Source: Patescibacteria group bacterium
GTDB lineage: Bacteria; Patescibacteriota; Microgenomatia; UBA1400; PJMF01
Direction of reading: 5' to 3'
DNA: 64,000 bases
NCBI GenBank assembly: GCA_041747555.1
Contig: JBGTEY010000011.1
Span: forward strand, 12,696-76,695
Shown here: positions 4,915-58,603 of the stretch, piece by piece
Layout of the letters: each line of letters opens with the position of its first letter
Numbering within the stretch: the first letter of the stretch is position 1
The notes under the pieces: model-generated
What the model was told of the DNA's origin: nothing
Seen by the model: only the letters and a program-made list of their open reading frames with translations
Database searches by the model: none
Program-made: the position numbers and the translations under genes

Positions 4915-4937
4915 ACATCACAATAATAAACCTTATT

Positions 4938-5522: not shown

Positions 5523-5525
5523 GTA

Positions 5526-15808: not shown

Positions 15809-15861
15809 TTATTCCGTTTGCACTTGTTGCACAGACACGTCTAGTCAGCTAGACTGACTGT

Positions 15862-16503
15862 ATGGAAAGTTCAAAGCAATCTTTTTATGTGGTGGGGAGT
15901 TTTTTAGTTGTCATTCTCATTGCTGTAGTTGGATATCTGTGGTATCAAAATCAATCAATCAAAAGTATTGCATTACCAACAACTAGTCAACCAAGTACCG
16001 TAGATCCTCGAACTGCACCTGTCATGCCCAAGCAAGATGGGGTCGTTGCAGACACACCACTGCTTGGTATTTTTGAAATAGGTTCGTCTCGAATTCCTAC
16101 TATTTCTGGCATTGTCGAGTCTGTTGACTTAATCGATTTGGGAAATCCTGGGCAACCGGAGCAATACTTTGTAGTCATTTCTAGTTTAGAAATACCTGAG
16201 GCAAAAATCAGAGTTGGAATCGGCCATGCTCAATACATGACCTCGGTTAGATACACAGGTGGCACCCCAACAGCAGGCAAAATTGTCGAAGAAAACATGC
16301 GTGTCAGGGACTTAGTTGAAAAAATAATACCAGGAGAAATTTTCACTGCTGATCTAACATTTCCTCAAGAGCAACCCGAGATACGATCAACCTTTATGGA
16401 CGACATAAAAGCATTTGAAGCAGAGGTGCTTGAAGGCAGTAACCCAAACCCATTCAATGTCCACTACTTTAGAGTACAAAAAATTGCGCTGCCACAAACA
16501 TGA
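15862..16503 (+). CDS. Hypothetical N-terminally membrane-anchored protein
   Basis: TM helix (FYVVGSFLVVILIAVVGYLWY) followed by a ~180-aa exported domain. Overlaps the next gene by ATGA. Confidence 0.45.
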   Translation: MESSKQSFYVVGSFLVVILIAVVGYLWYQNQSIKSIALPTTSQPSTVDPRTAPVMPKQDGVVADTPLLGIFEIGSSRIPTISGIVESVDLIDLGNPGQPEQYFVVISSLEIPEAKIRVGIGHAQYMTSVRYTGGTPTAGKIVEENMRVRDLVEKIIPGEIFTADLTFPQEQPEIRSTFMDDIKAFEAEVLEGSNPNPFNVHYFRVQKIALPQT

Positions 16504-23698: not shown

Positions 23699-24529
23699 TT
23701 ACCTCAAGAGCTGGAGATACCATTCCCACAAAACCAATCCATGAGTCATGCTCAACAAAAAACCCACAATCAGAAACGGACCAAATGGAATTGGTTGTCG
23801 CCATTGTCTTTTTTTAGAAGCAATCAGAAATACACCAACCACTGCGCCGATCAAAAAGGCCAAAAACAGTCCCACCAGCGCCTGCGGCCAGCCTGCCACT
23901 AGGCCAAGTGGGATCATTAATTTTACATCACCAAACCCCAAACCTTTACCTTTCGTCCCTGCCCAAAGCAAAAACATACCTGTAGTAAGGCCCAAGGTGA
24001 TTGCGATTGTTGCTATGAAGTTTGTCGCGGGTGCTCCCAAACCGTATGTTGTCACCTGGTAGAGCAGAGTAAGTATGGTTAACAGAATAATAGATCCATC
24101 GGGAATAATCAGATATTTCAGGTCAACAAGCGTAATGTACGTGAGCGTCAAAAACACAATAAGCCAATATAGTGCTGTTATCGTCAATAGCAGGTTGGAA
24201 AACGACAACACGCCCATTGCAACAAGTGCGAACCAGATCAGAAATACTGCGCCAAATGCAATTTCTGAGACCAAATGTGTCTGCGTTATGGGCTTTTTAC
24301 AAAACCTGCATGTACCCTTGAGGAACAAAAATGAAAGTACCGGAACCATATCAAACCACTTGAGTAATTTATGGCAGTGATCACAAGCAGATCTGCCGGT
24401 GACCCATAACTTTCCCTCGGCGCCTCTAGTAGCCATGACATGCAAAAAACTGCCAATCACAGCTCCAAACAAAAACAAAAAAAATCCACCAAGTAATGTA
24501 CTTATAGTTTCTAGGAGTGTATTACTCAT
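23699..24529 (-). CDS. pilD: Prepilin peptidase (A24 family) with N-terminal Zn-finger
   Basis: CDHCHKLLKWFDMVPVLSFLFLKGTCRFCKKPI tetra-Cys motif. Second catalytic Asp in GFGDVKLMIPLGLVAGW. Polytopic. Confidence 0.88.
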   Translation of the reverse strand: MSNTLLETISTLLGGFFLFLFGAVIGSFLHVMATRGAEGKLWVTGRSACDHCHKLLKWFDMVPVLSFLFLKGTCRFCKKPITQTHLVSEIAFGAVFLIWFALVAMGVLSFSNLLLTITALYWLIVFLTLTYITLVDLKYLIIPDGSIILLTILTLLYQVTTYGLGAPATNFIATIAITLGLTTGMFLLWAGTKGKGLGFGDVKLMIPLGLVAGWPQALVGLFLAFLIGAVVGVFLIASKKRQWRQPIPFGPFLIVGFLLSMTHGLVLWEWYLQLLR

Positions 24530-24590
24530 GAGGACCTACCAAAAGCCCTGAGCTCTTGCGAACCCAGGGCATATATATTTCTAATTTTGT

Positions 24591-25250
24591 TTAAGGAATG
24601 CAAACGCATTTTCCTTCTACACCACACTCTGTAGTGTTATCAATTGCGCTAGGCGGGTAGTCAGCTGGTACATTATCAAGCGTTCCATCTAAGTTCTGAT
24701 CAAGCCTTTGCTCAACTTCAGTGATAAATGCTTGGGATGATGGCGCGAAGCAAACATACGTACTGTCTCCCTGACTCCCTCGATTGTATACGAAGAGGGG
24801 ATTGCGAGATGAGGCAAAGACTCTATTAAAGAAACTAACCTTTACTTCATCTGTACCAATACAGTTACCAGTTGTGGCTTCACTCAGTTTTTCGTAGACA
24901 GGGCAAGCAGAATCATCAGCGGTAGCGTCAGTGAACTCTTGCCAAAGAATACCAGCGTTAGCGGTATCTCCCGGACCAGTTTGCCAAGGATACGCGCCTT
25001 GAAATGCTTGATATCGCTCAAACGCGCCAAGCAGTTGTTCAGCATCAGATCGATACCCCGTATCTCGACCACGATTAATTTGCTCAATCGGATTGAGTGC
25101 AGACAGCACCGCTACTGCCAAGATTCCAAGAATGGCGATAACAATTAAGAGTTCGATCATCGTGAAACCAGCCGCATTTTTGGCGGCAGATTTAATTGCT
25201 AGAAGGGCAGAGCGAATTGACATAATCTCCTTTGTCCTACGGGACATCAA
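24591..25250 (-). CDS. Type IV pilin-like protein
   Basis: ...AAKNAAG followed by FTMIELLIVIAILGILAVAVLSA. The start is ambiguous; the internal Met at 25223 would give a 19-aa leader. Confidence 0.7.
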   Translation of the reverse strand: MMSRRTKEIMSIRSALLAIKSAAKNAAGFTMIELLIVIAILGILAVAVLSALNPIEQINRGRDTGYRSDAEQLLGAFERYQAFQGAYPWQTGPGDTANAGILWQEFTDATADDSACPVYEKLSEATTGNCIGTDEVKVSFFNRVFASSRNPLFVYNRGSQGDSTYVCFAPSSQAFITEVEQRLDQNLDGTLDNVPADYPPSAIDNTTECGVEGKCVCIP

Positions 25251-25366
25251 GTGTGTTTTAAACTTACAATTACTCTATACTAAAAAACAACCTTTCTGCA
25301 AGTAGCATCTGGGAGGACTGCCCAAATTGCTATGCAAACTCTCGATCTCAACACGATTTGTCTCAA

Positions 25367-26572
25367 TTAGAATTGTGAGGTGAGATTGTAGATTGGCATA
25401 ATTATTGCGATCACCATTGCACCTACACCAATTCCAAGTACGACCATAATAAGTGGCTCGATCGCAGTAGTCATATTCTTAACTGCATGCTCAGTTTCAG
25501 ACTCGAAATACTCTGATAGCTTTTTGAGAACGCTATCGAGCTTGCCTGTTTCTTCACCAACCTTAATCATTTGGTGCAAAATCGGGGGGAAAATATCATC
25601 ATAGTGACTGAGTGCTTGTGAAAGAGAAACGCCTTTTTCGACCTGATCAGTGGCTTTCTGCAGAGCATCACGATACACAATATTCTCGACACCATCAGTC
25701 ACAATCTGCAATGCCTGTAACAAAGAAATGCCCGCGCCAAGTAATAGTGAAAGTGTTCGAGAAAATTCAGTGAGGATAACTTTTTGAGTTAACACACCAA
25801 CAACTGGGAGTCGCATCACAAATTTATCCACTACCAACTGTCCTGCCTCAGTTTTGTACCATCTGCGCACACCAAATACGCCTCCCACAATCGCAATTGC
25901 CACAAACCACCATGCACGGACCATAAAATCCGAGATTGCAATCAGTACTCGAGTAGCAAGCGGTAAATCGGCGCCAAAATCACGATACATTTCAGTCAGC
26001 TTTGGAATAACAAAAATCATCATAATCGCACCAACAACCAGCATCGCGATGATAACAATGACCGGATAGATGAGAGCGCCCTTGGTTTTGGCCCGAAAAT
26101 CTTTTTGCTTTTCCATATTTTCTGCTAACCGCTCAAGAATATTGTCCAAAACTCCGCCTGCTTCGCCGGCAAACACCAATTGAATGTAAATTCGTGAAAA
26201 ATATTCTTTTTGTTTATCGAGTGCTTTGGCAAATGATGTACCACCTTCAACCTCTTGAAGAAGTCCCGAAACCATCTTAGACATCTCGGGTTTGCCCTGC
26301 TGCACGAGAATGGAGAGTGCAGAGGACAATGGCAACCCTGCAGTAATCATGGTCGAAAGTTGCCGAGTAAAGTTGACAATATCGTCTATTTTTATTCCAA
26401 AAAATTTCGATTTAAAAAACTGCAACGAATCCTCAACCAAAGGATTAAGCGTTATAACTAGCAAATCTCTTGAGGTAAGAAGCGACGCAGCTTGTTCAAT
26501 AGTCTGAGCCTCGACCTTTCCCTTCACCGTCTCTGAAAATTTATTTTTGGCAGTGTATTTAAAGAATGCCAT
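25367..26572 (-). CDS. pilC: Type IV pilus platform protein PilC (GspF family)
   Basis: 401 aa with two GspF repeats and three TM segments. N-terminus MAFFKYTAKNKFSETVKGKVEAQTIEQAASLL is typical of PilC. Confidence 0.88.
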   Translation of the reverse strand: MAFFKYTAKNKFSETVKGKVEAQTIEQAASLLTSRDLLVITLNPLVEDSLQFFKSKFFGIKIDDIVNFTRQLSTMITAGLPLSSALSILVQQGKPEMSKMVSGLLQEVEGGTSFAKALDKQKEYFSRIYIQLVFAGEAGGVLDNILERLAENMEKQKDFRAKTKGALIYPVIVIIAMLVVGAIMMIFVIPKLTEMYRDFGADLPLATRVLIAISDFMVRAWWFVAIAIVGGVFGVRRWYKTEAGQLVVDKFVMRLPVVGVLTQKVILTEFSRTLSLLLGAGISLLQALQIVTDGVENIVYRDALQKATDQVEKGVSLSQALSHYDDIFPPILHQMIKVGEETGKLDSVLKKLSEYFESETEHAVKNMTTAIEPLIMVVLGIGVGAMVIAIIMPIYNLTSQF

Positions 26573-26575
26573 AGT

Positions 26576-27640
26576 TTATTGGCTTGTGCCTCCCATTAAA
26601 CGCTCGATTGCTTCTGGCCTAAAGGCATTAGTTTTGGCAACCTCGGCGGTAATGACGCCTTGGTTGGTGAGGGTAACAAGATGTGACTCCATAAGCTGCA
26701 TGCCGACGTCAGCAGAAGTTTGAATAACGTTGTCAATTTGATGCGTCTTTGCCTCCCGAATTAAGTTTCGGATAGCTGGATTCGCAACCATAATCTCAAG
26801 TGCAGCAACACGACCACCACTAGTATTAGGCAGCAATCGCTGTGAAGCAATTATTTTGACGGTAGCGGCTAACTGCTGGCGAATTTGACCTTGTTGATGA
26901 CCAGGGAACACATCAATGATACGGTCGATAGTCTGGGCTGCAGTTGCGGTATGCAGCGTTGCAAACACCAAATGTCCCGTTTCTGCTATTGTAATAGCTG
27001 CCGCAATTGTTTCGTAGTCGCGCATTTCACCAATCAGAACAATATTCGGGTCTTCACGCAGGACTGACTTGAGGGCAACTTCCCAACCATGGGTATCATG
27101 ATTAACCTCGCGTTGCGAAATAATACTTCTTTTTGGCTTGTACATGAATTCGATAGGATCTTCGATGGTGACGATGTGCTCAGCACGACTCGTGTTGATT
27201 TCATCAATAAGCGCAGCCAAACTAGTAGATTTTCCCTCGCCAGTAGGACCAGTGATCAGAATAAGGCCTTGATTAAACTTAGTAAAATCGTGAAAAATTG
27301 GTGGGAGCTGCAACTCATCAACCGTCTTGATTCTGGTTGGGATCAACCGAAGTGCAGCAGCCATCGTACCTTGTGCATGGTAGACATTAACACGAAATCG
27401 ACCTTTATCCTGATATTGATAACCAAGGTCCAATTCTTTGTTGACGCGGACATAATCGGCTTGCTCTTGAGTGAGGAGGGGAATAATGAGCGCTTCACTC
27501 TGCTCAGCATTCAACACTGGGGCGCCAGGTACAGGTTCAAGAACACCATGCACGCGTGTCATCGGGGGAGAACCCACCACTATATGAATGTCAGACCCCT
27601 CTGCAACGACAAGCTGCTCTAAAATATCATGTATGTTCAT
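26576..27640 (-). CDS. pilT: Twitching motility retraction ATPase PilT
   Basis: Walker A GPTGEGKST, the Asp box, and the PilT C-terminal AIRNLIRE motif. 354 aa. Confidence 0.9.
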   Translation of the reverse strand: MNIHDILEQLVVAEGSDIHIVVGSPPMTRVHGVLEPVPGAPVLNAEQSEALIIPLLTQEQADYVRVNKELDLGYQYQDKGRFRVNVYHAQGTMAAALRLIPTRIKTVDELQLPPIFHDFTKFNQGLILITGPTGEGKSTSLAALIDEINTSRAEHIVTIEDPIEFMYKPKRSIISQREVNHDTHGWEVALKSVLREDPNIVLIGEMRDYETIAAAITIAETGHLVFATLHTATAAQTIDRIIDVFPGHQQGQIRQQLAATVKIIASQRLLPNTSGGRVAALEIMVANPAIRNLIREAKTHQIDNVIQTSADVGMQLMESHLVTLTNQGVITAEVAKTNAFRPEAIERLMGGTSQ

Positions 27641-27665
27641 ACCAACTCCTTATATTCCTCAAACC

Positions 27666-29672
27666 TTACGTTTGGGCGACACGAAGCACCTCTTCAATTG
27701 TTGTTACTCCGCGCAATGCCTTGATGTATCCGTCTTGTTTCATTAAACGCATACCATCTTTGAGCGCCGCATTTTCGAGATCTGCGGCGGATTTTTGCTG
27801 TAGTATCAGCCTACCAATTTCTTCAGTAACTTTCATCACCTCAAAAATACCAATTCGGCCTTTGTATTCTGGCTGATCATTAGGGCGATTTTGACTCGGC
27901 CTAAAGAGCGTAATGTCCTCTGGTTTTTTTCCTTCTTGTTTACAGTAATTTTCAAAATGAGGCCCCAAAACGTTGATAATATCCTCAAGTACCGCAGGAT
28001 CTGGCTTATATTCTTCTTTAAAATCAGGATGCAGCTGTCTGACGACACGTTGTGCAGCAACCATAGTCATCGAAGAAGCAAGCAAAAATGGCTCTGCACC
28101 CATATCAAGGAGCCGAGGAAGCGCTCCCGCTGCAGAAGAGGTATGAAGCGTGGAGAAGACCAAATGACCAGTCAGGGCTGCTTGAATTGCCAACTCGGCA
28201 GTTTCACTATCACGAATCTCTCCTACCATAATAATATTAGGATCTTGACGTAAAAATGACCGCAGTCCAGAAGCAAAGGTTAAACCCGCTTGGGGATTAA
28301 TCTGTACTTGATTGATGCCAGGCATCTGATACTCGACAGGATCTTCAAGTGTCATAATATTAACCTTGGGCGTATTGATCTGGTGGAGGATTGAGTAGAG
28401 AGTGGTGGTTTTACCTGAGCCAGTCGGTCCTGTCACCAGCACAATTCCATGTGGAACGTGAATAGCGTCATTGACGTTCTTGAGTGCGAGTCCATCCATT
28501 CCAAGGTCTTTGATGGCAGGCACCTTTTCATCTTTTCTCAACAACCGCATCACAATTTTCTCGTTATGAATGGTTGGCAGCGTAGAAACACGAAGGTCAA
28601 CATCTTGATCATCACCGCTGTATGAGAACCGCCCATCTTGAGGCAAACGCTTCTCATCAATTTTCAGACCAGACATAATTTTAATTCTAGAAACAACTGC
28701 ATCGTGCACAGATCTGGGTAGGATTAGTTTTTCGCTTAAAATACCATCAATACGATACCGTACTCGAGTACGACTTTCTTGAGGTTCGATGTGAATGTCT
28801 GATGCGCGTGCTTTGATGGCAAAGGACAACACCGTCTGGACAATCTTAGTAATGGGCGCTTCTCGTATTGTCTCACCAGAAAGCGCCGAAAAATCTTCTT
28901 TTTTAGCCTTATCTTGCGCAACTTGACTTGTTTGCTCAAGGGCAGCTGATACTTCACTTGAGAGCGTTTGGGAATAGTGTGCAGCGATTGCCTGATCTAT
29001 TTCCGATGGGGTTGCATAAGTAGCTACAACCCTAAGTCCAGTTTTTTGTTTCGCAAATTCAATTGCGCTCAAATCGAGTGGATCCTCCATTGCAACCGTC
29101 AGCACGCCTTCATTTTTGTTGTAGGAAAGTGGAAGCATTCTATAGTTGCGCGCGACACTCTCAGGAAGCTGCGATAGAGCTTGTGGATCGGTTCCAGTCT
29201 CAGATATTTTTGTAAACCCAACATTATTAAGCAGCGCCTTTGCTTGATAGAGTTGCTCCTCGGTTACAATATCTTTTTCTTTAAGGAGAAGATCAATGGG
29301 CTTGTTTTCACTAATGTGTTGAAGTTTAAGTTGATTATGCTGTTCAGCCGTGATCGTCCCATTTGCCAGTAAAACATCAAGGAGTGATTGTTTCATTCCT
29401 GTGGCACCAGGAATTAGACTGGGTGTGGCGACGGGTGGAGGCGGAGGTGGAGCAGATTGGGCAACTTCTGGCGGTGATTCTGGCTCAATTACAGTGACTA
29501 GTGGACTTGGCTCAATTGTTGGAGAACTTGGGGTAGCTTGCGATTGATCTGGTGGTTGAGGAGGCACACCAGATGCCATCGTCGATTCACCTGCAGGGTT
29601 CGCGGGAACACCAGAGGACGTCGAAGACGATCCAGATTGCGCACTAACTGGCTGCTGGGCAGGAATGTCCAT
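27666..29672 (-). CDS. pilB: Type IV pilus extension ATPase PilB (GspE family) with Pro/Ser-rich N-terminal extension
   Basis: T2SSE_N domain and Walker A GPTGSGKTT; 668 aa. The first ~90 aa are low complexity (PQPPDQSQATPSSPTIEPSP...PPPPPPVATPS). Confidence 0.9.
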   Translation of the reverse strand: MDIPAQQPVSAQSGSSSTSSGVPANPAGESTMASGVPPQPPDQSQATPSSPTIEPSPLVTVIEPESPPEVAQSAPPPPPPVATPSLIPGATGMKQSLLDVLLANGTITAEQHNQLKLQHISENKPIDLLLKEKDIVTEEQLYQAKALLNNVGFTKISETGTDPQALSQLPESVARNYRMLPLSYNKNEGVLTVAMEDPLDLSAIEFAKQKTGLRVVATYATPSEIDQAIAAHYSQTLSSEVSAALEQTSQVAQDKAKKEDFSALSGETIREAPITKIVQTVLSFAIKARASDIHIEPQESRTRVRYRIDGILSEKLILPRSVHDAVVSRIKIMSGLKIDEKRLPQDGRFSYSGDDQDVDLRVSTLPTIHNEKIVMRLLRKDEKVPAIKDLGMDGLALKNVNDAIHVPHGIVLVTGPTGSGKTTTLYSILHQINTPKVNIMTLEDPVEYQMPGINQVQINPQAGLTFASGLRSFLRQDPNIIMVGEIRDSETAELAIQAALTGHLVFSTLHTSSAAGALPRLLDMGAEPFLLASSMTMVAAQRVVRQLHPDFKEEYKPDPAVLEDIINVLGPHFENYCKQEGKKPEDITLFRPSQNRPNDQPEYKGRIGIFEVMKVTEEIGRLILQQKSAADLENAALKDGMRLMKQDGYIKALRGVTTIEEVLRVAQT

Positions 29673-30483: not shown

Positions 30484-30590
30484 CTATATCAAATATTATA
30501 CCTATACATCAACACTTTTTGAAAGATGCCCAATTTAGCAGTCAAATTATCACTCTGCTAATTGGTCTGTAAAGCAATAGAGAAGAGTAG

Positions 30591-32654
<2,064 letters not shown>

Positions 32655-32658
32655 ATTT

Positions 32659-33603
32659 ATGTCAAAAACATACATCATCGGCCATACCAAACCAGACACA
32701 GACGCAGTTGTAGCAGCGATGGCTCTCGAGTATCTGTACAAAAAAGAAGAATGCTTTTGTCATCCAGATGCAGAGGCGGTAATTGCAGATCCACTCAATC
32801 CAGAAACAGAATTTTTGTTTAAAAAATTTAGCGTATCCAGCCCTCGATTAATTACTGCAGATGATATTGCTCCCGGTGACAAAATCGTACTTGTCGACCA
32901 CAACGAAGCCTCACAACGTCTCGAGGGAATTTCAGAGGATCAAATTGCAGAAGTTCTCGATCACCACAAGGTAAATCTCAACCTCAGTCAACCAATTTTC
33001 ATGACCTTCAAGGCATGGGGTTCCAGCTCCACTATTGCTTACTACTTGATGAAACAACAAAATCTTACACCCGATAAAACCTTAGCAAGTCTGTTATTGG
33101 CAGCCATTTTGTCAGACACAGTTGGGTACAAGTCCGCTACCACGACCCAAAAAGACAAAGACTTAGGTGCAGAACTCGCAGACCTGGCCGAAATTTCTGA
33201 CGTTGATGCCTTCACCTTAGAAATTTTCAAGGCAAAATCAAACGTTTCTGATCTCTCAGACGAACAAATTGTCAAAAATGACTACAAAATCTTTGAATTT
33301 GGCAAAAAAACCATGATCGATCAGCTCGAAACGGTAGAGCAGACCGAAATTTTGCAAAATAAGAAGCAAGATTTACTCACCGCTATGCAAAAAGTCAAAG
33401 ATGAGCTCCAGGTTGAACTACTTTTTGTGGCAATTACCGATATTTTAAACGTAAATACCAAAGTTTTAATCCTCTCAGACGCAGAAAGAACAGTCGCAGA
33501 GGCAGCATTTGGCGGCACCACTCAGGATAATGTCCTCGATATAGGGGCTAAAATGTCAAGAAAAAAGGAAATCGCACCCGCTATAGAGAAAGCGTTAGCG
33601 TAA
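32659..33603 (+). CDS. ppaC: Manganese-dependent inorganic pyrophosphatase (family II, DHH-DHHA2)
   Basis: [31 protein letters not shown] and a C-terminal SRKKEIAP track B. subtilis PpaC motifs (GHQNPDSDAI, DHNE, VDHHR, LLSGLISDT, SRKKQVVP). Confidence 0.8.
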
Positions 33604-36358: not shown

Positions 36359-36413
36359 TCAGAATCAAAATGTCATTTTGACACTACTGAAATCTTTCAA
36401 ACGTATTTTTTTG

Positions 36414-36487
36414 TGGACCTGAGGGGATTCGAACCCCTGACCTTCTGTATGCCATACAGACGCGCTAACCAACTGCGCCACAGGCCC
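36414..36487 (-). tRNA. tRNA-Ala (anticodon GGC)
   Basis: Reverse complement: GGGCCUGUGGCGCAGUUGGUUAGCGCGUCUGUAUGGCAUACAGAAGGUCAGGGGUUCGAAUCCCCUCAGGUCCA. Cloverleaf with a G3:U70 pair, a GGC anticodon in a 7-nt loop, a TPsiC loop UUCGAAU, and discriminator A. CCA is not encoded. Confidence 0.85.
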
Positions 36488-36535
36488 ATCTCAAGATTTC
36501 AATTATAGCACGAGCATGTGCATTAAAAAGTCCGC

Positions 36536-37471
36536 CTAAAAATCTGAATGGTGTTTTTCATGCACTTTCCTCAGTTGAGGGCGGGTAACATGGGTATAAA
36601 TTTGGGTTGTGGCAATGTTTTTGTGCCCAAGCATCTCTTGGACATCCCTGAGACCTGCACCATTTGACAATAAATCAGTAGCAAAACTATGTCGCAAGCC
36701 ATGCGGGCTAATTTTGATCGGCAACTGCGCCTGGCGACAGTATTTATCTAGGATTCGCTGAACACTCCGTGATGTGAGCCGCATTTGCTCTCCATCGGTG
36801 GTAATTGGAGGTCTTTTACCAGAAAACCGCACAAAAACTGGTCTCCACTTATCATCACGCCGATCAAGCCATCTAGCAAGCCAATCTGCCGCGCGATGAC
36901 TCAAGAACACTACTCGTGGTCTGCGACCTTTACCGATCACGCCAAACTCTCGTTTTTCTAGGTCTATTTGGTCTCTGTTGAGTTTTACTAACTCACTCAC
37001 GCGGAGGCCAGTAGAGAAGAGGACTTCCAAAATCGCCCGGTCGCGGAAACCTGCCGGATTCGATAATTCTGGTTGTGCGAGCAATTTTTCTACCTTATCG
37101 CGATTTAAAAACTTCATGTGTTGGGAATCTGCTTTGGGGAGATCAATTTTTTCGGGGTGGAGAACTGGCTTGTCGTTTTTCACCAGCCATTTTAGGAATG
37201 AGCGAAGCGAAATAACGTAGTAGCTCTGAGTTTTTTTGGCTAAGGTACCACCTTTACCGTCTGGCTCTCTTGATAAAAAGAGTCTATACTCGCGCACGAG
37301 ATCCTGATTAAGATCTTTTATGTCGTCGTGACCTTGTTCATGAAACCAAGCAATAAATTTTCGCAAATATTGCCCATAATTTCTAATGGTAAGCTTGCTG
37401 ACATTACGTTCAACCTCAAGATGCTCTAGAAATTTAATGAGTGCTGGCTGCGCGGAGGTAGTGAGAGACAT
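36536..37471 (-). CDS. Tyrosine site-specific recombinase, XerC/XerD family
   Basis: N-terminal SAM-like core-binding domain. Catalytic region HGLRHSFATDLLSNGAGLRDVQEMLGHKNIATTQIYTHV (R...HxxR...Y). Confidence 0.85.
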   Translation of the reverse strand: MSLTTSAQPALIKFLEHLEVERNVSKLTIRNYGQYLRKFIAWFHEQGHDDIKDLNQDLVREYRLFLSREPDGKGGTLAKKTQSYYVISLRSFLKWLVKNDKPVLHPEKIDLPKADSQHMKFLNRDKVEKLLAQPELSNPAGFRDRAILEVLFSTGLRVSELVKLNRDQIDLEKREFGVIGKGRRPRVVFLSHRAADWLARWLDRRDDKWRPVFVRFSGKRPPITTDGEQMRLTSRSVQRILDKYCRQAQLPIKISPHGLRHSFATDLLSNGAGLRDVQEMLGHKNIATTQIYTHVTRPQLRKVHEKHHSDF

Positions 37472-37715
37472 GAATGCAAAAGACTATAAGCTTTTAGCAG
37501 TCAAAGTAATCTTCTGCTAAAATTGATGCATATCACTTTTGCTTGATGTATCAAGCAGAAAAATGACATACTTTGATCAGTTCGTATGTAACCAATACAG
37601 ACACTGATCTATTTAATCGGTCGTTGGTATAGATACTGTTGTATCGTATTTTTTTATGTTTAGCAAGGTGCTGTTTTATCACCGTGTACGGAGATAATAC
37701 AAAAGATGCCGTGAC

Positions 37716-39788
37716 TTAATTCTTAAGGTGCTCTGGAAATCTCAACTTACTAGAAAATAAAATATTCTTTTTTAAATTGGTAACAATAGGTGCAGGCAAA
37801 GGCAAGTGTGCGTCAAACAGCGCCTGAAAAATACTTACAACTCTATCGCGCAATTGTTCATTCTTATTCATACTTACTATCGCGTCAGTGTTGCAGAGCC
37901 GCATCAAGCCTGAAAACTTTTCACAGTCCGCCGCAATAATACTTTTCTCCATAGCCACAATTAGATATTCAATCGGCATATATGTAACGCAGTACGCAAC
38001 GAACTTTTCATAGTGCTCTAACTGCGAACAGTACTCCTGACCAGCTTCTAGAATGTTAAAAACTAGCGTTGAATACGTCTGAATACTGTTTGTACTGCGC
38101 ATAAATTGTGCGATTTCGAGCATCTCTTGATCAGTTGCAAATTTTAAGAAGTCAGCAATTAAACCAAGTGTTGTTTCAATTTGATCTGCTGAGCCGAGCT
38201 CTCTCAAATCAGCGAAAGCAGCCTTTAATCGAACCGTTGTTTTGTGATCATCTACCTGTTTCACTTGCAAGTACTGAGTAAGTCCGGGAAATGTCTCAGT
38301 AGCAAAGTGAGCTTTAATTGTTTCTCGATTTCTTGTATTCACCAATTCAAGTAGTTCTAGTATCTGTGATGATGGATAGACTTCTGTAACCCTGACTAAG
38401 GTAGCTTGTAGATCCGAATCTAAGAAGATTGTCATGACCGCATCTATAAGATCTGGTTTTTTATCGACTATGATCTCAACGAGCAAGCCAAACTGCGCCA
38501 GTGAGAATGATCTAAATGCTTTTTCAAGGAGACTCGAACCATGTTCTCCAACTCTCACCAGCATATCGGTGTCAAATGCCAGAACAAATGCCGCTAATTG
38601 ATACCGTTCATGGAAAGCAGACTGATCCGCAAGCATTTGATGAAGTAACGTTTCTGTCGCACTTTTATCGAGCTTCATAAGTAAGTAGTCGACAACCCGT
38701 CTATCTTTCATATCAAACCCAAACGAGTGAGAAATTTTCTGCATCAACTGCATATCCGGAACCAGTTGGGCAGAATCATCAAGGGATTTCAGATACTCTA
38801 GAACCTTTTCAACTGACAATCCGAGCGCAGGTACTTTGTCGTCATCACCAACTAAAGATAACTGAACATTTAATAGTTGTTTCACCAGTGAGAGGGCAAT
38901 TGTTGGATCATCTTGTGGTAACACATCAACTACTGATACAAAAACCTCGCTTACCGCTGGGGCAGATGGTATTCTGACATGCATATCGTACCCAAAGAGG
39001 AGGGTAGTAGCGCCGTACCTTGGATGATCGGTCACTTCTGTAGGGAGCTGCAGATACAACTCATACAATCGAATACATTCCTGAGTTTCTATTCGAAGTT
39101 CTCCGACAGCACAGCACTCAGAAATTAATTCCCGTGTGGGAAAAAGGGGATCAATCAACCAATCTGGGTTATTTTTTGAGACAGATGAGAGTATGTCAGT
39201 AGAAAAATGTCTTTGCGACAAAATTGGTAATGAACTCAAATAGAGTATGACATCAAGGCTGTTCCATAGTCTAATAAAATCTTTACATTCAAATTGAGCT
39301 CGCTCGCCACTCTCGGCTGATGAGCGCTGAAGTGCGTTTCGTGTCAGGAAATTAAAGATAAATCTGCCGTTTGCCAATCGCTGCTCATCGGTTATATTCG
39401 CCACATTTCCAACTTCAACGAGGTATTTTTTTAGGTTTGGATCACCAAGAATCTCCAGTAGCTCATATGGTGGGTCACTCTCACCAGAGAGAATTGCAGC
39501 TACGAGTATTTGAAAGTAAAGATCATAGAATTCTGTTCCAACAACCGCCTCCGCGAAAGCTGTATTGTACGAATCAGGACCGTCTTTTAAGGTTTGCTCT
39601 GCAGCGAGAAGGAGCATTTTATCAAGCATTTGAGGGGCACGATGTGAGGTTCGTCCCATTACATCGAGCAAAAGCATATAAAGCAGTTGGTCATTTGATT
39701 CGTCGCCAGCCGCAACTTCTAGTTCAATAACGATCCCATCAACTGCGCCATCGCCATCACGTTCTTTGCCAGTTGGGGAAGTGGACAT
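37716..39788 (-). CDS. Hypothetical large all-alpha protein (690 aa), no recognisable domain
   Basis: Leu-rich helical sequence with no TM helix or signal peptide. No motif was matched. Flanked by the Xer recombinase and the LOX-like gene. Confidence 0.4.
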   Translation of the reverse strand: MSTSPTGKERDGDGAVDGIVIELEVAAGDESNDQLLYMLLLDVMGRTSHRAPQMLDKMLLLAAEQTLKDGPDSYNTAFAEAVVGTEFYDLYFQILVAAILSGESDPPYELLEILGDPNLKKYLVEVGNVANITDEQRLANGRFIFNFLTRNALQRSSAESGERAQFECKDFIRLWNSLDVILYLSSLPILSQRHFSTDILSSVSKNNPDWLIDPLFPTRELISECCAVGELRIETQECIRLYELYLQLPTEVTDHPRYGATTLLFGYDMHVRIPSAPAVSEVFVSVVDVLPQDDPTIALSLVKQLLNVQLSLVGDDDKVPALGLSVEKVLEYLKSLDDSAQLVPDMQLMQKISHSFGFDMKDRRVVDYLLMKLDKSATETLLHQMLADQSAFHERYQLAAFVLAFDTDMLVRVGEHGSSLLEKAFRSFSLAQFGLLVEIIVDKKPDLIDAVMTIFLDSDLQATLVRVTEVYPSSQILELLELVNTRNRETIKAHFATETFPGLTQYLQVKQVDDHKTTVRLKAAFADLRELGSADQIETTLGLIADFLKFATDQEMLEIAQFMRSTNSIQTYSTLVFNILEAGQEYCSQLEHYEKFVAYCVTYMPIEYLIVAMEKSIIAADCEKFSGLMRLCNTDAIVSMNKNEQLRDRVVSIFQALFDAHLPLPAPIVTNLKKNILFSSKLRFPEHLKN

Positions 39789-39854
39789 CTCGATAGTATA
39801 TCATACAGGATCATATCGAAGCCGCATCAAGTTCACCAGAGTTCAAAAATTGTT

Positions 39855-40853
39855 TCACGGAAACACTACAGATTGCTCAAACCGATTATTTGCATAATCA
39901 CTTTCAATAAGCGCAGAGTTTGGATTTAGTATATATCTAATTATGACGGCAGCACCCGGTGGTACTGGATACTGTAACCTGATATTTTGACCAGGCACAT
40001 TTTCACCATAATGATCAACGTATCCTGGAGAAAGTCCTTGGATGTGCGCTCCGCAGCCTTGATACACCGCATTCGGTGGAGCTGCACCTTGACTCAATTC
40101 AACAATTCCTGGATGAAACGGATCCATTGCAACATTTCCGTCTTGCAAACAAAAGGATGCTTTATCCACCCTCACAACCTCACCAGTTGCGGGAACAAAC
40201 ACTTCAACGGTCACAAAATTTTCAAAATGAAAATGTCCATGTGATGGATGGTGTTCAAAATTACCCGCAGGTGCCTCGTAGGCTACAACTTGTCCGGTTA
40301 ACTCGTCTTTTGCATAGAGTATTTGAGCAACCTTCATCGAAGCACCAGATCCTGAAGTTTCCAAACCAGCTGCCTGCAATCGCAGAGGTCCTGGTCCAAT
40401 ATTTGCAAATGTGGTTGGAAAGTAAAATGATAGACGGTCTTCTCCTAGTCGATACGCCGTTTCTGGGCTAGGGGAGGGGACGATGGTTAAATCAGGGTAG
40501 AGAATTGGACTCCCAGAAGTTGCAGCTTCAATTGGTTGGGTAAAAACCTGATCCAAAGGAACGGGGGAGCCATCAATATAATCAATATACGACTTATCAA
40601 GATTTGGATTCCCAGTTCCAATAGCAGTCTGCACCTCATTTGGCGTGAGTGTTGGCACATCTTGCGCTGGAGCCACCGATTCAACTATGTCAGAACTAGT
40701 ACCACCCGAGTTCTCTGGAGTCACTGTGGCAACAAAGGTCACCTGTTCCCCACCGGTATCTGTAGAATATGAGCCAGCCTCAGCTGTACAAGATATAAGT
40801 AGCAATGCAATTACGACCTGTCCGAGCGCATAGCGATACCTAACTCCTTTCAT
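39855..40853 (-). CDS. Lipoprotein-anchored lysyl oxidase-like copper amine oxidase domain protein
   Basis: The C-terminal half aligns to the animal LOX catalytic domain: FEHHPSHGHFHFENF (His-rich Cu site), KASFCLQDG (the LTQ Lys context KASFCLED), QGLSPGYVDHY (QGLSPGCYDTY, LTQ Tyr), and ESDYANN (ESDYTNN). The start was moved to the Met giving MKGVRYRYALGQVVIALLLISC| with a lipobox. Confidence 0.6.
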   Translation of the reverse strand: MKGVRYRYALGQVVIALLLISCTAEAGSYSTDTGGEQVTFVATVTPENSGGTSSDIVESVAPAQDVPTLTPNEVQTAIGTGNPNLDKSYIDYIDGSPVPLDQVFTQPIEAATSGSPILYPDLTIVPSPSPETAYRLGEDRLSFYFPTTFANIGPGPLRLQAAGLETSGSGASMKVAQILYAKDELTGQVVAYEAPAGNFEHHPSHGHFHFENFVTVEVFVPATGEVVRVDKASFCLQDGNVAMDPFHPGIVELSQGAAPPNAVYQGCGAHIQGLSPGYVDHYGENVPGQNIRLQYPVPPGAAVIIRYILNPNSALIESDYANNRFEQSVVFP

Positions 40854-41976
40854 ATAATCTTTAACCGCTAACTTTAGACGGTCAAACCGAGGTGAGTTGT
40901 TTTTACTTTTGACTAATTTTTCTGCATGATGCTTTTCTGATTGCAAATGGGTTTTATCGAATGATTGAATTAATGCCATAAGGCAGTAGTATCCAATATT
41001 TTCACAAAAAATACAAATTTTCCCCAAGTAAGCCATTTAAAGCCCCAAAATCGGCTTTTTAATTGTGAGACGGGTGTTTGTATGTCTCAAATAGAGGCCC
41101 GTGTGCATCAAAACGGTATTTTGTATACCAAATGACCTAATCCTACTGAATTACCGTTGCTAAGCAACAACTACTTACCTCCCATATCATATACGCCTGC
41201 CTTTTTAAGGTATATGCAACTAATTTGCATTTAGCACCAGGTGTATAGGGACTAAAAACCGAGAACTCAAGGTATGGAGACACCCCGAGAGGTATGGGGG
41301 AAGGAAGTAATACAAAGAAAATAATAACGAATACACAAAAACAACAAGCATGGAGAACAAACACAAATTAAGCAATGAAATCTGTGCAGTCTTTCTATAC
41401 TTGGCTTTACGTCGCAAAAGTAATATTGTGCGACGTAACACATTGTGGGTCCATTTAGTAAAAGAGAGCTCTTTCGCTCTCCACCGCTTCGATAGATTGC
41501 ACATTTCTGCATAGAACATGTTTCAGCGATCACCATTCACGCTGCAGTTCACCCGCCACCGCGTCTCTCGAGTCAGTCGCACTCTGTACATTATTTTCAC
41601 TATCTCATTAAACAGGCATTCGGGTTTTTTATTCCCGCAAATTGATGTATGTACTCGAGGAATAGAATAGCCCACCAGAGGTGGCTCTACTGCAGCCGCC
41701 AGAGGTCAGATCTGGTACTTATTTTTTCATTTATGGTCGTTTACGTGCCGATTATGCAACATTTACCCTGGTGGAATGCGTGTAATGTCCTATAACTATT
41801 GGAGTTTTCCACACTCTGTACTGTATCAAACTATATCATTTTACTCTATCAAAATATATCAACATCCCCTGCTCTTGACATATGGCACACATTTTTCTTC
41901 CCCCTACTCCAGTCTGGAAAAGATTACTCAATTTTTTTAAAAAAAATAAAATAGTGCATTTTTTAACGCTATTTTT

Positions 41977-42752: not shown

Positions 42753-43313
42753 TTACTCATCATCAGAGAGCTGGGCAGCGGTGTACACATCCTCAACATC
42801 ATCGTCAGATAAAAATTGATCTAGTAATGATTTGATCTTTTTTTCGTCTGCTGGCTCGACTGGCATGGGCATCGTGGTCACGTAGTCACCAGCGTCGTTT
42901 CGCTGAAACATATACATGGCGGAGCCTGGACTGCCAAGGGAGCCCCCTCCTCTAGAAAAAATAAATTTCATGTTGGAACTAGTGCGATTAGGATTGTCGG
43001 TCATTGCAGAAACAATTATGGGAACGCCACCAGGTCCAAATCCTTCGTAATCAATTTGTTGAATTGTCGCGCCGGTGCTGCTTTTTCCAAGACCGCGATC
43101 GATTGCGCGCTGAATATTATCTTTGGGCATGTTGGCACTGCGAGCTTTTTCAAGTGCTAATCTGAGCGATGGATTTGCGTTTGGATCTCCTGAACCACCT
43201 TCTTTGGTGGCCATTTTAATTTGTTTTGAAATTTGGGAAAAAACCTTGCCTTTTTTGGCGTCGTTTGCCCCTTTTCGCTGTTTAATATTGTTCCACTTAC
43301 TGTGTCCTGCCAT
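42753..43313 (-). CDS. yebC: YebC/PmpR family DNA-binding regulatory protein
   Basis: MAGHSKWNNIKQRKGANDAKKGKVFSQISKQI is the family N-terminus. The start was moved to that Met; the upstream part of the track ORF is an artefact. Confidence 0.88.
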   Translation of the reverse strand: MAGHSKWNNIKQRKGANDAKKGKVFSQISKQIKMATKEGGSGDPNANPSLRLALEKARSANMPKDNIQRAIDRGLGKSSTGATIQQIDYEGFGPGGVPIIVSAMTDNPNRTSSNMKFIFSRGGGSLGSPGSAMYMFQRNDAGDYVTTMPMPVEPADEKKIKSLLDQFLSDDDVEDVYTAAQLSDDE

Positions 43314-43406
43314 ATGAAATTCTATTATACAGGATTGTTTAAAAAAACCATGTTGACATACGACACCACACCTTGTAGTATTCTCCAGCATAACCCTGAG
43401 GGATCT

Positions 43407-44147
43407 ATGATAAGCAGAGCAACTCTCCGCAACAAAGCAATCGCCGCCGCAAAGCAAGCAAATTGGCATGAGGCGATTGAACTTAATACACTCCTTATTT
43501 CTCAAGAAAAGCACGATACTCAAGCACTTAACCGCCTTGGTGTAGCACACCTACAGCTGCGTGACGTTGATGCTGCCAAAGCAGCGTTTGAGCAAACCTT
43601 AGAAATTGATCGAACTAATACCATTGCAAAAAAGCACTTAGCTAATCTGAAAAAAAACATTATTGTGGCCGCTCCTTCGTTCACCAAACAGCATTTCATC
43701 GAAGAGCCAGGAAAAACAAAAACAGTTGAGCTTCACCGTTTGGCAGGAAAAAACTCACTCAAAGATGTTTCAGTTGGCCAAGTTTGCACACTCAAACCAA
43801 AAAATCGCTTTATCTCAATCGAAGTTGGTGATTCATACGTCGGCGCACTTCCAGAAGATCTTTCGTTTCGACTTTCTAAATTAATAAAACGCGGCAATCA
43901 GTATTCCTGCCAAGTTCGATCATGTAATGGCACCGCTTGTTCGGTCTACATCAAGGAAGAAGTTCAATCTGCAAAAAATGCAGATATCCACTCGTTCCCA
44001 CCAAATAAAAATAATCTCGCGACACTAAACGATATTGATGAAGACTTTTTACTCGAAAAAGATATACCAGTTGAAATCGTTGATACCGACAACGATGTTG
44101 AAAAGTCATTTGAAGACGTCGAATCAGATGCCCTTAATGACGATTAA
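43407..44147 (+). CDS. TPR-repeat protein with acidic C-terminus
   Basis: ALNRLGVAHLQLRDVDAAKAAFEQTLEIDRTN forms TPR-like helices. GAGGGA lies 3-4 nt before ATG 43407. An alternative start is 43350. Confidence 0.45.
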   Translation: MISRATLRNKAIAAAKQANWHEAIELNTLLISQEKHDTQALNRLGVAHLQLRDVDAAKAAFEQTLEIDRTNTIAKKHLANLKKNIIVAAPSFTKQHFIEEPGKTKTVELHRLAGKNSLKDVSVGQVCTLKPKNRFISIEVGDSYVGALPEDLSFRLSKLIKRGNQYSCQVRSCNGTACSVYIKEEVQSAKNADIHSFPPNKNNLATLNDIDEDFLLEKDIPVEIVDTDNDVEKSFEDVESDALNDD

Positions 44148-47902: not shown

Positions 47903-48733
47903 CTACTCGCTCTGTCTCTTGGCTTTATTCATAAGTTTCATCCTCTCTTCTTCGATGTCTAAAACATGCATTCTCCGATGACAGTTGGGACATAATGCCA
48001 CTACGTTTTCCAACGTATCGGGACCACCCTCTGAAAGCCATTTAATATGATGTACTTCAAAAAATGGCTCATTGCTTTTATCAGTAAATGGCGCTTCCAG
48101 TTCGCACAAATCACAAATGCCACCTGCCCTTCTTTTTGCCAACTCCACTATATCTGAATTGCGGTCATACTGTTTGGATACTACAACTCTTACCCCGACC
48201 TTCTTTGGAGCCTTTTTAACCCGCGCCTCCAGTTCTTCAGTGGTTTTACTCCTTGATTTCTTATCTAATATTCTAGTCTTGTTATCAAACACGTCTTTAG
48301 TAATTATTGGCGTTTGTGACTGGTCCTCAAGCTTTAAGGGGAATACCCATACTTTTCGGTCTGTTCCATCTGCATCTGGCTGTACCTCTTCATGAGGGTC
48401 TTCAAACAAAACCATTTTTCCTTGGTAGGTATATTTTCCAGCTTCAAGCACCTCAAATAGGTGGACATCAATTCCGTTAGTATCTGACTCCGCAAGTGTT
48501 TTATTTTGACTGTAGTTCAAGTCTTGGTCTCCCCGCAAACCCATGCCAGTATAATGAAATACGTCATCCAGCCATCTATCTTCATAAACAGACTTTAAGT
48601 GGTCTGACACTAAAACGAGTGTATTTGTACGCAAACTACGTCTCATACCGCCCTGAGGAGCGCAAAGGAAGATTTCGCAAACTTCTTCGTTTGATAAGTT
48701 GGTTCCAGGTTTCAGACTTTCAATTTCATCCAT
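47903..48733 (-). CDS. SRA-domain + HNH nuclease, ScoMcrA/McrA-like modification-dependent (type IV) restriction endonuclease
   Basis: N-terminal LVLVSDHLKSVYEDRWLDDVFHYTGMGLRGDQD...YTYQGKMVL fits the SRA/YDG-like pattern (SGGYEDD...YTGSGGRD...YRYDGLY). C-terminal CDLC...EVHHIKWLSEGGPDTLENVVALCPNCHRRMH is an HNH beta-beta-alpha-Me fold with a Cys4 Zn site. 276 aa, similar to E. coli McrA. Confidence 0.65.
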   Translation of the reverse strand: MDEIESLKPGTNLSNEEVCEIFLCAPQGGMRRSLRTNTLVLVSDHLKSVYEDRWLDDVFHYTGMGLRGDQDLNYSQNKTLAESDTNGIDVHLFEVLEAGKYTYQGKMVLFEDPHEEVQPDADGTDRKVWVFPLKLEDQSQTPIITKDVFDNKTRILDKKSRSKTTEELEARVKKAPKKVGVRVVVSKQYDRNSDIVELAKRRAGGICDLCELEAPFTDKSNEPFFEVHHIKWLSEGGPDTLENVVALCPNCHRRMHVLDIEEERMKLMNKAKRQSE

Positions 48734-57364: not shown

Positions 57365-57795
57365 CGTTCCCTAAAAACAATAATAGCTAAAGTAGTCACT
57401 ATCACAATATCTGCCAAATTATTGCGAACCCCTACTAATGGCATTGGTAGCCAATCACGCACCCCTCCAAAAATAATCCTATCCAGGATATTCGATGCGA
57501 CAGCTCCCCAGAATATTCCCGAGATTATCAAATTTTTCTGCCAAACATCTCTAAAATAAACCAAAATCCCAATCGTGACCGCCATAACCAAAAAGAGCGT
57601 AAATATTTCTGGGAGCGCAGTTCCAATTCCAAATGAAATACCCCTATTTATGGTGGTATCAAAGCCATTTTGATCAGCAAGCCACTTGGAAGTCTGATCA
57701 AGAATTAGCAGTACTATCCCAGCCAGCACGCTCAGAACGAGCGGAGAATTTCTAAACGTTTGTACGTAACTATGATTCATGGGTAAACTGCTCAA
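57361..57795 (-). CDS. lspA: Lipoprotein signal peptidase (signal peptidase II)
   Basis: NRGISFGI and FGGVRDWL motifs, four TM helices. 144 aa. Confidence 0.85.
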   Translation of the reverse strand: MSSLPMNHSYVQTFRNSPLVLSVLAGIVLLILDQTSKWLADQNGFDTTINRGISFGIGTALPEIFTLFLVMAVTIGILVYFRDVWQKNLIISGIFWGAVASNILDRIIFGGVRDWLPMPLVGVRNNLADIVIVTTLAIIVFRER

Positions 57796-58603
57796 TTTTT
57801 ATCTTCTTAGGTCGCTTTTTTTTCAAAAATCCAATTACTCTCCCTGATCGAACATATAACAAACTAAGTCCAAACAACAGAAACACCACCAATGCCGTGC
57901 GCTCTAGAAATAACCCACCAATAGCAATTCTACTCGGTCGAATTACCGTCATGCCAAGCTCAATAACACTACTTAAAATTACAAACATCGCAAACACAAA
58001 CCCCGTCTGAGCTGTTTTCTTCCCTGATCGGTACCAAGAAAAAGTTCGATATCGGTACTCTACTCGAGATAAAAACCAAAATAATCCGCCATACGCCAGT
58101 GCCAAGTACAACTGCACCGGGTGCGCGGGCTCAAAAAGGCTCGGAAACTGCACTCCCCAAGGCATGGTTGTCGTGTAGCCACTCCCCCCACCTTGAAAAA
58201 ATTGCCCAATATTGACAAAAATCAACCCAATTGCCATAGCAGTTGCCCAAAAATCAAGTATCTCAAATTCATCCCATTTTTGCGCTCTACATCGCTTAAA
58301 AAGAACAATTGAAGCAACTATTGAGCCAGAAAAACTATCAAATCCCGGACTCCGAATCACGTCAAACCACTGCAACACATTAAAACCAAATTGTGGAAAA
58401 TTCAATGCAATATACCCAATTCGACTTGCCAATCCTCCAACCAACACCGCAATAAAAAACGCATCAAACAACTGCTCCTCGCTGTAGTGCTCTTCTCGAC
58501 CTCGGCGCCAAAACACAAAGCTCGCCGCAAAAAATCCAAGCAACGCAAACAAGGTCATCGTTCTGAAGGCAATCGGACCAATTGTAAATAATATCGGAAA
58601 CAT
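57770..58603 (-). CDS. lgt: Prolipoprotein diacylglyceryl transferase
   Basis: Lgt signature region with conserved R/G residues in a polytopic protein. Operonic with lspA. Confidence 0.85.
   Translation of the reverse strand: MFPILFTIGPIAFRTMTLFALLGFFAASFVFWRRGREEHYSEEQLFDAFFIAVLVGGLASRIGYIALNFPQFGFNVLQWFDVIRSPGFDSFSGSIVASIVLFKRCRAQKWDEFEILDFWATAMAIGLIFVNIGQFFQGGGSGYTTTMPWGVQFPSLFEPAHPVQLYLALAYGGLFWFLSRVEYRYRTFSWYRSGKKTAQTGFVFAMFVILSSVIELGMTVIRPSRIAIGGLFLERTALVVFLLFGLSLLYVRSGRVIGFLKKKRPKKIKIEQFTHES

Follow-up and report, generated by a model that had tools for sequence, protein, structure and literature searches.

The 64,000-nt stretch of DNA analysed here (the window; position 1 is its first letter) comes from a Patescibacteria group bacterium and carries a lysyl oxidase (LOX) homolog next to a 690-aa protein without known relatives. 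Both genes lie between a DUF5656 gene and xer, which encodes a Xer-type tyrosine recombinase and has a tRNA-Ala(GGC) gene as its neighbour. The initial annotation had named four features, the tRNA-Ala, the recombinase, the 690-aa open reading frame (ORF) and the LOX-like ORF, and all of them were found at the positions it gave. The motifs it quoted, HHPSHGHFHFENF, KASFCLQDG, QGLSPGYVDHY and ESDYANN, were each present in the LOX translation. It had placed the genome in the candidate phyla radiation (CPR), and the genome is indeed of this kind (Microgenomates/Pacebacteria-like). Coordinates are collected in Table 1, and residues of the LOX protein are numbered on its 374-aa form.

The LOX protein matched the profile PF01186 (Lysyl_oxidase) with E = 1.4e-10 and 41.6-41.8 bits against a curated cut-off of 20.4, and the match covered profile positions 75-191 of 204. 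Its sole sequence match in the PDB was human LOXL2 (5ZE3). Because of these two matches, we consider the resemblance to be real and not due to chance, and the protein is, judged by its sequence, a true member of the LOX family. BLASTP against vertebrate LOXL1 gave E = 1e-12 with every motif in register, and the predicted structure has the fold of the LOX catalytic domain. The family assignment, for which the initial annotation had proposed the profile search, was thus borne out, with the Lys, Tyr and His residues aligned to the LOX active site.

Three alignments set the window protein against its 40 nearest homologs, against 15 database matches (fish LOXL1 and insect LOXL3 among them) and against 111 homologs. 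The residues H247, H249, H251, K273, C277, C309 and Y324 were invariant in these alignments of 41, 16 and 112 sequences, animal LOXL1 and LOXL3 included, and H244 was conserved in at least 90% of the homologs in the 112-sequence alignment. The window motif FEHHPSHGHFH aligned to WEWHSCHQHYH of LOXL1 and HDCHRHYH of LOXL2, so that H247/H249/H251 fall on HRHYH of LOXL2 5ZE3, and DKASFCLQD aligned to HKASFCLED of both animal proteins. QGLSPGYVDHY aligned to QGLSPGCYDTY (LOXL1) and QGITMGCWDMY (LOXL2), which places Y324 on the Tyr of GCYDTY and GCWDMY, and ESDYANN aligned to ESDFTNN of animal LOX. In LOXL2, copper is bound by H626/H628/H630, and the aligned residues are these ligands together with the Lys/Tyr pair from which lysine tyrosylquinone (LTQ) arises. 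The catalytic residues are all retained in the window protein and also conserved in P0002, a LOX ortholog from a Microgenomates metagenome-assembled genome (MAG). Two loop insertions distinguish the window protein from most bacterial homologs, and a conserved stretch of ~55 residues ahead of the LOX domain is common only to this protein and P0002.

The initial annotation described the LOX homolog as a 333-aa exported lipoprotein. Its export and plausible lipoprotein nature were upheld; its length was not. The start it implied, ATG 40853, gives 332 aa, and P0002 (67-68% identical to the window LOX) has Leu-Phe in place of this Met. The A-V-K-D codons directly upstream of ATG 40853 are conserved in the ortholog with three synonymous changes, so translation almost certainly starts further upstream. 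The first ATG of the frame (41036) is ACG in the ortholog and falls inside a conserved non-coding block. The public gene call (P0001) has 374 aa and starts at ATG 40979, which is the most likely start on the sequence comparison. The hexamers of TTGTAT-17-GATACT end 8 nt before this ATG, and a related genome with ~75-77% DNA identity (L001) keeps both hexamers and their spacing (TTGTGT-17-GATACT); TTGTRT-17-GATACT is a candidate LOX promoter. Directly upstream of the LOX gene, a block at 41018-41078 is 93% identical to L001 and holds a promoter-like site, TTGAGA-17-CACAAT, and the hairpin AAAGCCGATTTTGGGGCTTT, which recurs in a few relatives without LOX, in either orientation. A structured RNA or riboswitch was considered for the blocks upstream of LOX and rejected, as no Rfam match was found at the gathering threshold or at E<=1.

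The ALGQVVIALLLIS region is the most hydrophobic 15-mer of the LOX protein and is followed by Cys64, the only Cys outside the catalytic disulfide pair, which is invariant in P0002. The sequence L-I-S-C after ALGQVVIALL fits the lipobox pattern [LVI][ASTVI][GAS]C, and the modification enzyme Lgt is encoded in the window. About 60 residues after the Cys were modelled as a linker at very low confidence. These features indicate that the catalytic domain is extracytoplasmic and that the protein is likely anchored as a lipoprotein.

The surroundings of the two genes were compared with those of related species. A scan for xer relatives with one genome per GTDB species returned 572 stretches, of which the best 80 were retained for locus comparison; their recombinases are 57-76% identical to that of the window, and they come from Pacebacteria, Woesebacteria, Gottesmanbacteria, Levybacteria and other Microgenomates. 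The gene order rpsB-tsf-(TGT)-LytR_C-TPR-yebC-DUF5656-[gap]-xer-[gap]-gyrA-DHH-gyrB was the same as in the window in ~70 of the 80 loci, and tRNA-Ala(GGC) lay between xer and gyrA in 15 of the 17 related loci checked. Because sequence identity, gene order and tRNA position are all conserved, xer and the tRNA are regarded as ancient backbone. The recombinase has Phage_integrase and SAM-like N-domains. It scored 251.7 bits with XerC and 250.4 bits with XerD, and both scores fall short of the NCBIfam equivalog thresholds (335 and 330); it is Xer-like and assignable to neither C nor D. It is a housekeeping tyrosine recombinase, and it and the tRNA did not deliver the segment. The initial annotation had considered that the two would fit horizontal acquisition, a reading that does not hold, as xer, tRNA-Ala(GGC) and gyrA are conserved backbone in dozens of species; its caveat that the recombinase might be the housekeeping Xer was correct.

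LOX and the ORFan, as we call the 690-aa gene, are lineage-specific cargo in the DUF5656-xer slot of this conserved Microgenomates chromosome. Neither gene was found at the locus in any of the 80 related loci. The DUF5656-xer gap measures 1.2-1.7 kb in most relatives and contains no ORF of at least 90 aa, and the slot itself is ORF-free (0.46-1.2 kb) in most species. Other relatives carry different cargo in the xer-proximal slot, namely a trehalase, BacA, a PMT-type glycosyltransferase, an AP_endonuc_2 TIM-barrel protein, orphan clusters and pilin-like proteins. In L001, LOX stands in the same place after DUF5656, with ~76% DNA identity on the upstream side, and synteny breaks immediately downstream of it, where L001 has pyrF/pyrE and the window has the ORFan. 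Because LOX is at the same place in L001 and absent from the 80 loci, its gain is lineage-specific and predates the window/L001 split, and the ORFan is a separate, later difference. The comparison of base composition and codon usage that the initial annotation proposed showed a native segment, with no anomaly against the window. The GC content of LOX and the ORFan was 0.44 and 0.42 (window mean 0.44; segment 0.40-0.45, as elsewhere), and their codon chi2 per codon was 0.146 and 0.075 (window median 0.178). A direct repeat of the tRNA-Ala 3' half, also proposed there, was not found: the 31-nt half at up to 3 mismatches over the 64 kb matched only the tRNA itself. A general repeat search over 18 kb gave only short chance-level pairs and no bounding direct repeats.

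The ORFan had been called unannotatable and all-helical, and the searches and the model agree. It matched only itself among 5.8 billion proteins in a word-indexed search, had no Pfam, NCBIfam, PADLOC, PHROGs or PDB match, and had no relative in viral contigs. The AlphaFold2 (AF2) single-sequence model consists of helices only, at a pLDDT of 44 (low; too poor for a fold search). The protein is acidic (99 D+E versus 61 K+R) with 14% Leu, and no membrane segment or internal repeat was found in it. With a frame open over 2073 nt and one of the most typical codon usages of all window genes, the ORFan qualifies as a real gene. It encodes a native-looking cytoplasmic helical protein and has its own candidate promoter, a -10-like box directly ahead of its ATG.

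Table 1. Features of the LOX locus and related elements in the 64,000-nt window
Feature	Position	Strand	Basis or remark
tRNA-Ala(GGC)	36413-36487	-	backbone
Tyrosine recombinase (Xer-type), 311 aa	36536-37471	-	Phage_integrase E=4.5e-43; backbone, outside cargo
Palindrome TTAGCAG-N13-CTGCTAA, candidate operator	37493..37520	.	xer promoter region; backbone
690-aa ORFan	37716-39788	-	2073-nt open frame
LOX ORF, open up to ATG 41036	39855-41036	-	quoted motifs present in translation
LOX gene, favoured start M20 (ATG 40979), 374 aa	39855..40979	-	PF01186; public gene call
LOX catalytic domain, ILYPDL to C-terminus	39858..40505	-	
Tyr324, predicted LTQ tyrosine (GYVDHY)	40008..40010	-	invariant in alignments
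Lys273, predicted LTQ lysine (DKASFCLQD)	40161..40163	-	invariant in alignments
Copper-site histidines H244, H247, H249, H251 (HPSHGHFH)	40227..40250	-	alignment to LOXL2, LOXL1
Hydrophobic export segment ALGQVVIALLLIS-C, lipobox L-I-S-C, Cys64	40788..40829	-	hydrophobicity; conserved Cys
Candidate LOX promoter TTGTAT-17 nt-GATACT	40988..41016	-	sequence inspection; kept in L001
28-bp imperfect palindrome ACGTCGCACAA-TATTAC-TTTTGCGACGT	41409..41436	-	upstream edge of cargo slot; candidate dif-like Xer site
Conserved non-coding block, two TGATATAGTTTGATA repeats and DnaA-box-like TGTGGAAAAC	41803..41861	-	comparison with relatives
Lgt gene	57770-58603		PF01790, 81 bits

The relatives of the window LOX are more numerous than the initial annotation, which spoke of only sporadic bacterial homologs, had allowed. 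LOX homologs have been described in Bacteroidetes, Actinobacteria, Proteobacteria, Gemmatimonadetes, Deinococcus-Thermus and two archaeal groups, and most of the surveyed prokaryotic proteins consist of one domain plus a signal or membrane segment (Grau-Bove et al. 2015, PMC4448552). In an exhaustive HMMER scan against 1.84 billion cluster representatives (metagenomes, 50% identity clusters), 1504 related clusters passed E<=1e-3 and 246 passed E<=1e-10, each with its match in the C-terminal ~215 residues of the window protein; among the nearest homologs, 111 of 112 also matched PF01186. The NCBI pipeline names a 'Lysyl oxidase family protein' in Microgenomates and Moranbacteria MAGs, and our literature search found no paper linking lysyl oxidase to CPR/Patescibacteria lineages.

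Beyond the pair formed by the window protein and P0002, the nearest relatives are 35-39% identical, and the named ones belong to Anaerolineales (P0017, P0019), Anaerolineae, Dehalococcoidia (P0020), Moranbacteria (P0154) and one Binatia. In a neighbor-joining (NJ) tree of 112 LOX sequences, the pair had 100% bootstrap support and a long branch, and the best bootstrap for its sister group was 31-46%. The tree, a phylogeny of the kind proposed for finding a donor lineage, names no donor. The Moranbacteria LOX was not sister to the window protein. Its gene (contigs L084-L087, 6001-6840) has a GSDH-type beta-propeller gene on one side and an M23 peptidase gene on the other, with desulfoferrodoxin nearby. 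Because it is not sister and its gene context differs, the CPR LOX genes look independently acquired in this comparison. LOX homologs are present on Streptomyces megaplasmids, and none was found in phage records; the alignment of the close LOX pair found no relative in the searched genome or viral collections.

The window protein resembles the known prokaryotic LOX (HTU-LOX, Streptomyces LOX) in having one catalytic domain preceded by a hydrophobic or signal region at the N-terminus, a copper His triad, the LTQ Lys and Tyr and one conserved disulfide. It also shares with them a patchy distribution suggesting transfer. In contrast to them, it shares no more than 39% identity with any homolog other than P0002, its branch in the tree is long, it has the extra N-terminal stretch of ~55 residues and Phe/Tyr in place of the usual Trp, and it comes from CPR/Microgenomates, a group outside the 2015 survey (PMC4448552). 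Compared with animal LOX/LOXL1-4 (19-31% identity), it lacks the SRCR domains and the BMP-1-cleaved propeptide, has one of five disulfides, and is membrane-tethered and bacterial, without collagen or elastin substrates. The LOX proteins of CPR and Chloroflexota MAGs (P0154, P0017, P0019, P0020) are of the same family and size class as the window LOX, and the Moranbacteria protein differs from it in gene context. Thus, the window adds a further member to a known enzyme family, together with a gene without known relatives.

We think it quite probable that LOX and the ORFan are lineage-specific cargo in a backbone slot and that LOX is an active, exported, LTQ-dependent amine oxidase of the envelope. 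We regard family membership, the conserved catalytic residues, the fold, the export signal and the genomic placement with its history as shown, and activity, substrate and biological role as inferred. In the mechanism we propose, export would place the LOX protein on the outer side of the membrane, where an Lgt-dependent lipid anchor followed by a flexible linker of ~60 residues would most likely tether it. Lys273 and Tyr324 would form a self-generated LTQ cofactor, giving a copper- and O2-dependent amine oxidase that would convert primary amines to aldehydes and release NH3 and H2O2. Likely substrates would be the Lys side chains of envelope proteins or the stem peptides of peptidoglycan, and the enzyme would most likely serve to modify covalently or to cross-link the cell envelope or attachment structures. 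The envelope is suggested as the target, by weak inference, because the protein is membrane-tethered, some homologs are fused to LysM domains (3 of the 112 nearest), and an M23 peptidase gene lies beside the Moranbacteria LOX gene. One of the 112 homologs has a GSDH fusion, and these fusions and the Moranbacteria neighbours hint at ties of LOX to the cell wall and to oxidative stress.

Several observations weigh against this reading. At two positions that hold Trp in at least 90% of bacterial homologs, the window LOX has Phe and Tyr (HFH versus HWH, GY.D.Y versus GW.D.Y), and four of the five disulfides of animal LOX are absent. The lipobox of the ortholog P0002, T-V-A-C, is non-canonical, and a start at M20 gives a signal n-region of ~50 residues, which is atypical for lipoproteins. 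LspA was not seen among the scanned ORFs of the 64-kb window, and no copper-handling genes were found in it. The GC content at third codon positions (GC3) of LOX is 0.31, ~1.9 standard deviations below the window mean. The rarity of LysM fusions makes the case for an envelope substrate weak. Finally, CPR bacteria are usually considered anaerobic fermenters, and an enzyme that requires O2 would perhaps rarely be active in them.

A LOX-like protein without a cross-linking role is a serious alternative, to which we give a lesser and tentative probability. It would be either a broad amine oxidase, serving nitrogen scavenging, H2O2 production against a host or competitors, or inactivation of amine antibiotics, or an inert binding domain. 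The archaeal HTU-LOX of Haloterrigena turkmenica was active once its N-terminal hydrophobic region was removed, was sensitive to beta-aminopropionitrile (BAPN), and had relaxed specificity, acting on Lys polymers and many primary amines, and also oxidising taurine, glycine, aminoglycosides and polymyxin (Pestov et al. 2019, PMC6452851). Most prokaryotic LOX have a single domain, which gives no clue to the substrate (PMC4448552), and at two positions near the active site the window protein departs from most homologs, with Trp replaced by Phe and by Tyr. The inert version is opposed by the retention of all catalytic residues and their conservation with the ortholog, and membrane tethering favours envelope-proximal substrates over bulk solutes.

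The remaining readings concern how the genes came to the slot. In the non-coding DNA between DUF5656 and the slot, blocks are 89-93% identical to L001, compared with ~76% for the surrounding coding DNA. A 28-bp palindrome occurs once in the window and once in 71 of 81 related loci (L001, L004-L083), always between DUF5656 and xer, and most Microgenomates species examined have it at a distance of 0.4-1.4 kb from their one xer gene, on the upstream side. Its consensus is A[T/C]GTCGCACAAT-A[T/A][T/A]A-CTTTT[G/A]CGAC[G/A]T. Over the 72 sites (71 related loci and the window), the arms are near-invariant, the centre is variable, and the pairing is not maintained. A hairpin was considered and rejected, as pair 7/22 was Watson-Crick in 37 of the 72 sites and pair 9/20 in none. 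Because pairing is not maintained, the palindrome resembles two protein half-sites and not a hairpin, and it looks like a candidate dif-like Xer site. The XerS/difSL system of streptococci (PMC1914069) is comparable in having one xer and a conserved imperfect palindrome upstream, kept across many species. It differs in that the Microgenomates palindrome lies 0.4-1.4 kb upstream and not immediately adjacent, and in that the window recombinase is XerC/D-like (~250 bits) with an XerS score of 117 bits.

GC skew over 43 loci had no consistent sign change at the palindrome, which argues against a classical terminus there. In related Microgenomates, the cumulative GC skew is reported to be monotonic, and the origin and terminus have been proposed to lie close together (Kadnikov et al., PMC7143001). 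A search by GC skew for an oriC or terminus at the palindrome gave no consistent signal, and the monotonic skew reported for related lineages weakens this test (PMC7143001). The gaps of L004-L083 and the window at 41803-41861 (also 41619-41630) contain repeated TGATATAGTTTGATAYAG, TATAGGAC and CGTGAAAA motifs. The TGTGGATAACT motif in the gaps is the DnaA-box consensus, and the perfect 9-mer TTATCCACA is ~22-fold enriched in the relatives' DUF5656-xer gaps. The order and number of the motifs in the conserved blocks differ between genomes. This ORF-free region, whose position is conserved class-wide, looks like a protein-binding array.

Closer to xer, TTAGCAG-N13-CTGCTAA was found upstream of the gene in 33 of the 80 loci with conserved arms and a variable spacer, and a second copy stands upstream of gyrB at 30534-30561; the element is a candidate operator common to xer and gyrB. 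It has ATTACTTT in common with the 28-bp palindrome, and we considered it as a degenerate dif. This was rejected, as its spacer varies in the 33 relatives and it is a native part of the xer promoter.

LOX and the ORFan might lie inside an undescribed, class-wide Microgenomates module consisting of a DnaA-box array, a dif-like palindrome and a single xer, with a recurrent gene-capture slot between the last two. We hold this to be unlikely. If the palindrome were dif and the array origin-related, the module would be the ori/ter-adjacent arrangement proposed for the monotonic skew (PMC7143001), and LOX would be one example of the cargo captured in the slot. The non-coding module is maybe weightier than LOX itself, and it could bear on replication and chromosome-dimer resolution in Microgenomates.

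It is quite unlikely that Xer recombination at the 28-bp palindrome, acting as a dif-like site, brought LOX and the ORFan into the slot, as in IMEX elements or pdif modules. Such a capture would agree with the single 11-6-11 palindrome of invariant arms and variable centre that 71 of 81 related loci have upstream of xer, with the slot between palindrome and xer, which holds differing cargo by lineage, and with the precedent of a physically linked dif-xer module in XerS/difSL (PMC1914069). However, it is not supported because the cargo in the window has no second copy of the palindrome beside it, not even a degenerate one when 10 of the 28 positions may mismatch. Other cargo-bearing loci likewise have one copy, the sole xer-proximal palindrome (TTAGCAG-N13-CTGCTAA) is the native promoter element with its variable spacer, and GC skew lacks a consistent terminus signal at the site.

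An island formed by site-specific integration through the adjacent recombinase, with tRNA-Ala as the attachment site, would account for a tyrosine recombinase and a tRNA adjoining two genes of patchy distribution that are absent at the locus in 80 related species, but it is highly unlikely given that the recombinase is a core gene at a fixed position (57-76% identity in the best 80 of 572) with tRNA-Ala(GGC) as its conserved neighbour, that neither a repeat of the tRNA 3' half (up to 3 mismatches, 64 kb) nor flanking direct repeats were found, that composition and codon usage are native, that LOX is older than the split from a genome only ~76% identical in DNA, and that no relatives were found in phage, plasmid (Streptomyces megaplasmids excepted) or viral-contig collections.

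Other parts of the window were also inspected. Boxes resembling the -10 element (TATAAT, TATAGT, TATACT) stand 7-14 nt before the ATG at many starts, for example 39788, 43313, 58603 and 37471, and Shine-Dalgarno sequences are absent from most window genes. Because these boxes lie so close to the ATG and Shine-Dalgarno sequences are few, the sequence suggests that mRNAs with no leader or a very short one are common here. At 61-6056, four consecutive large proteins without Pfam match (587, 543, 449 and 205 aa) are followed by a sortase (5526-6056); the genes may form a sortase-dependent locus for surface proteins or a pilus. Type IV pilus genes, encoding PilM, a prepilin peptidase, PilC and PilT-like and PilB-like ATPases, lie at 10035-11045, 23699-29672 and 13892-19973, and these regions also encode two large proteins without Pfam match (638 and 1157 aa). 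An SRA(ScoMcrA)-HNH nuclease gene at 47903-48733 (- strand) has a NUDIX gene and rpsB as its neighbours; L001 lacks it at that position, and it may be a small defence-type insertion. Two mechanically assigned ORF starts were over-extended: that of yebC (42753-43550), which starts at 43313 in the public record (186 aa), and that of the DHH/DHHA2 gene (32590-33603), whose listed ORF overlaps the end of gyrB by 65 nt.

For annotation, this locus teaches that a recombinase and a tRNA beside odd genes can be conserved backbone, as they are here, and not the marks of an island. With the window LOX, the family gains a divergent branch that has an extra N-terminal stretch. If the enzyme is active, some CPR bacteria would display on their surface an amine oxidase that depends on copper and O2 and releases H2O2. 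This would bear on how episymbionts build or harden their envelope and attachment structures, and on their exposure to oxygen.

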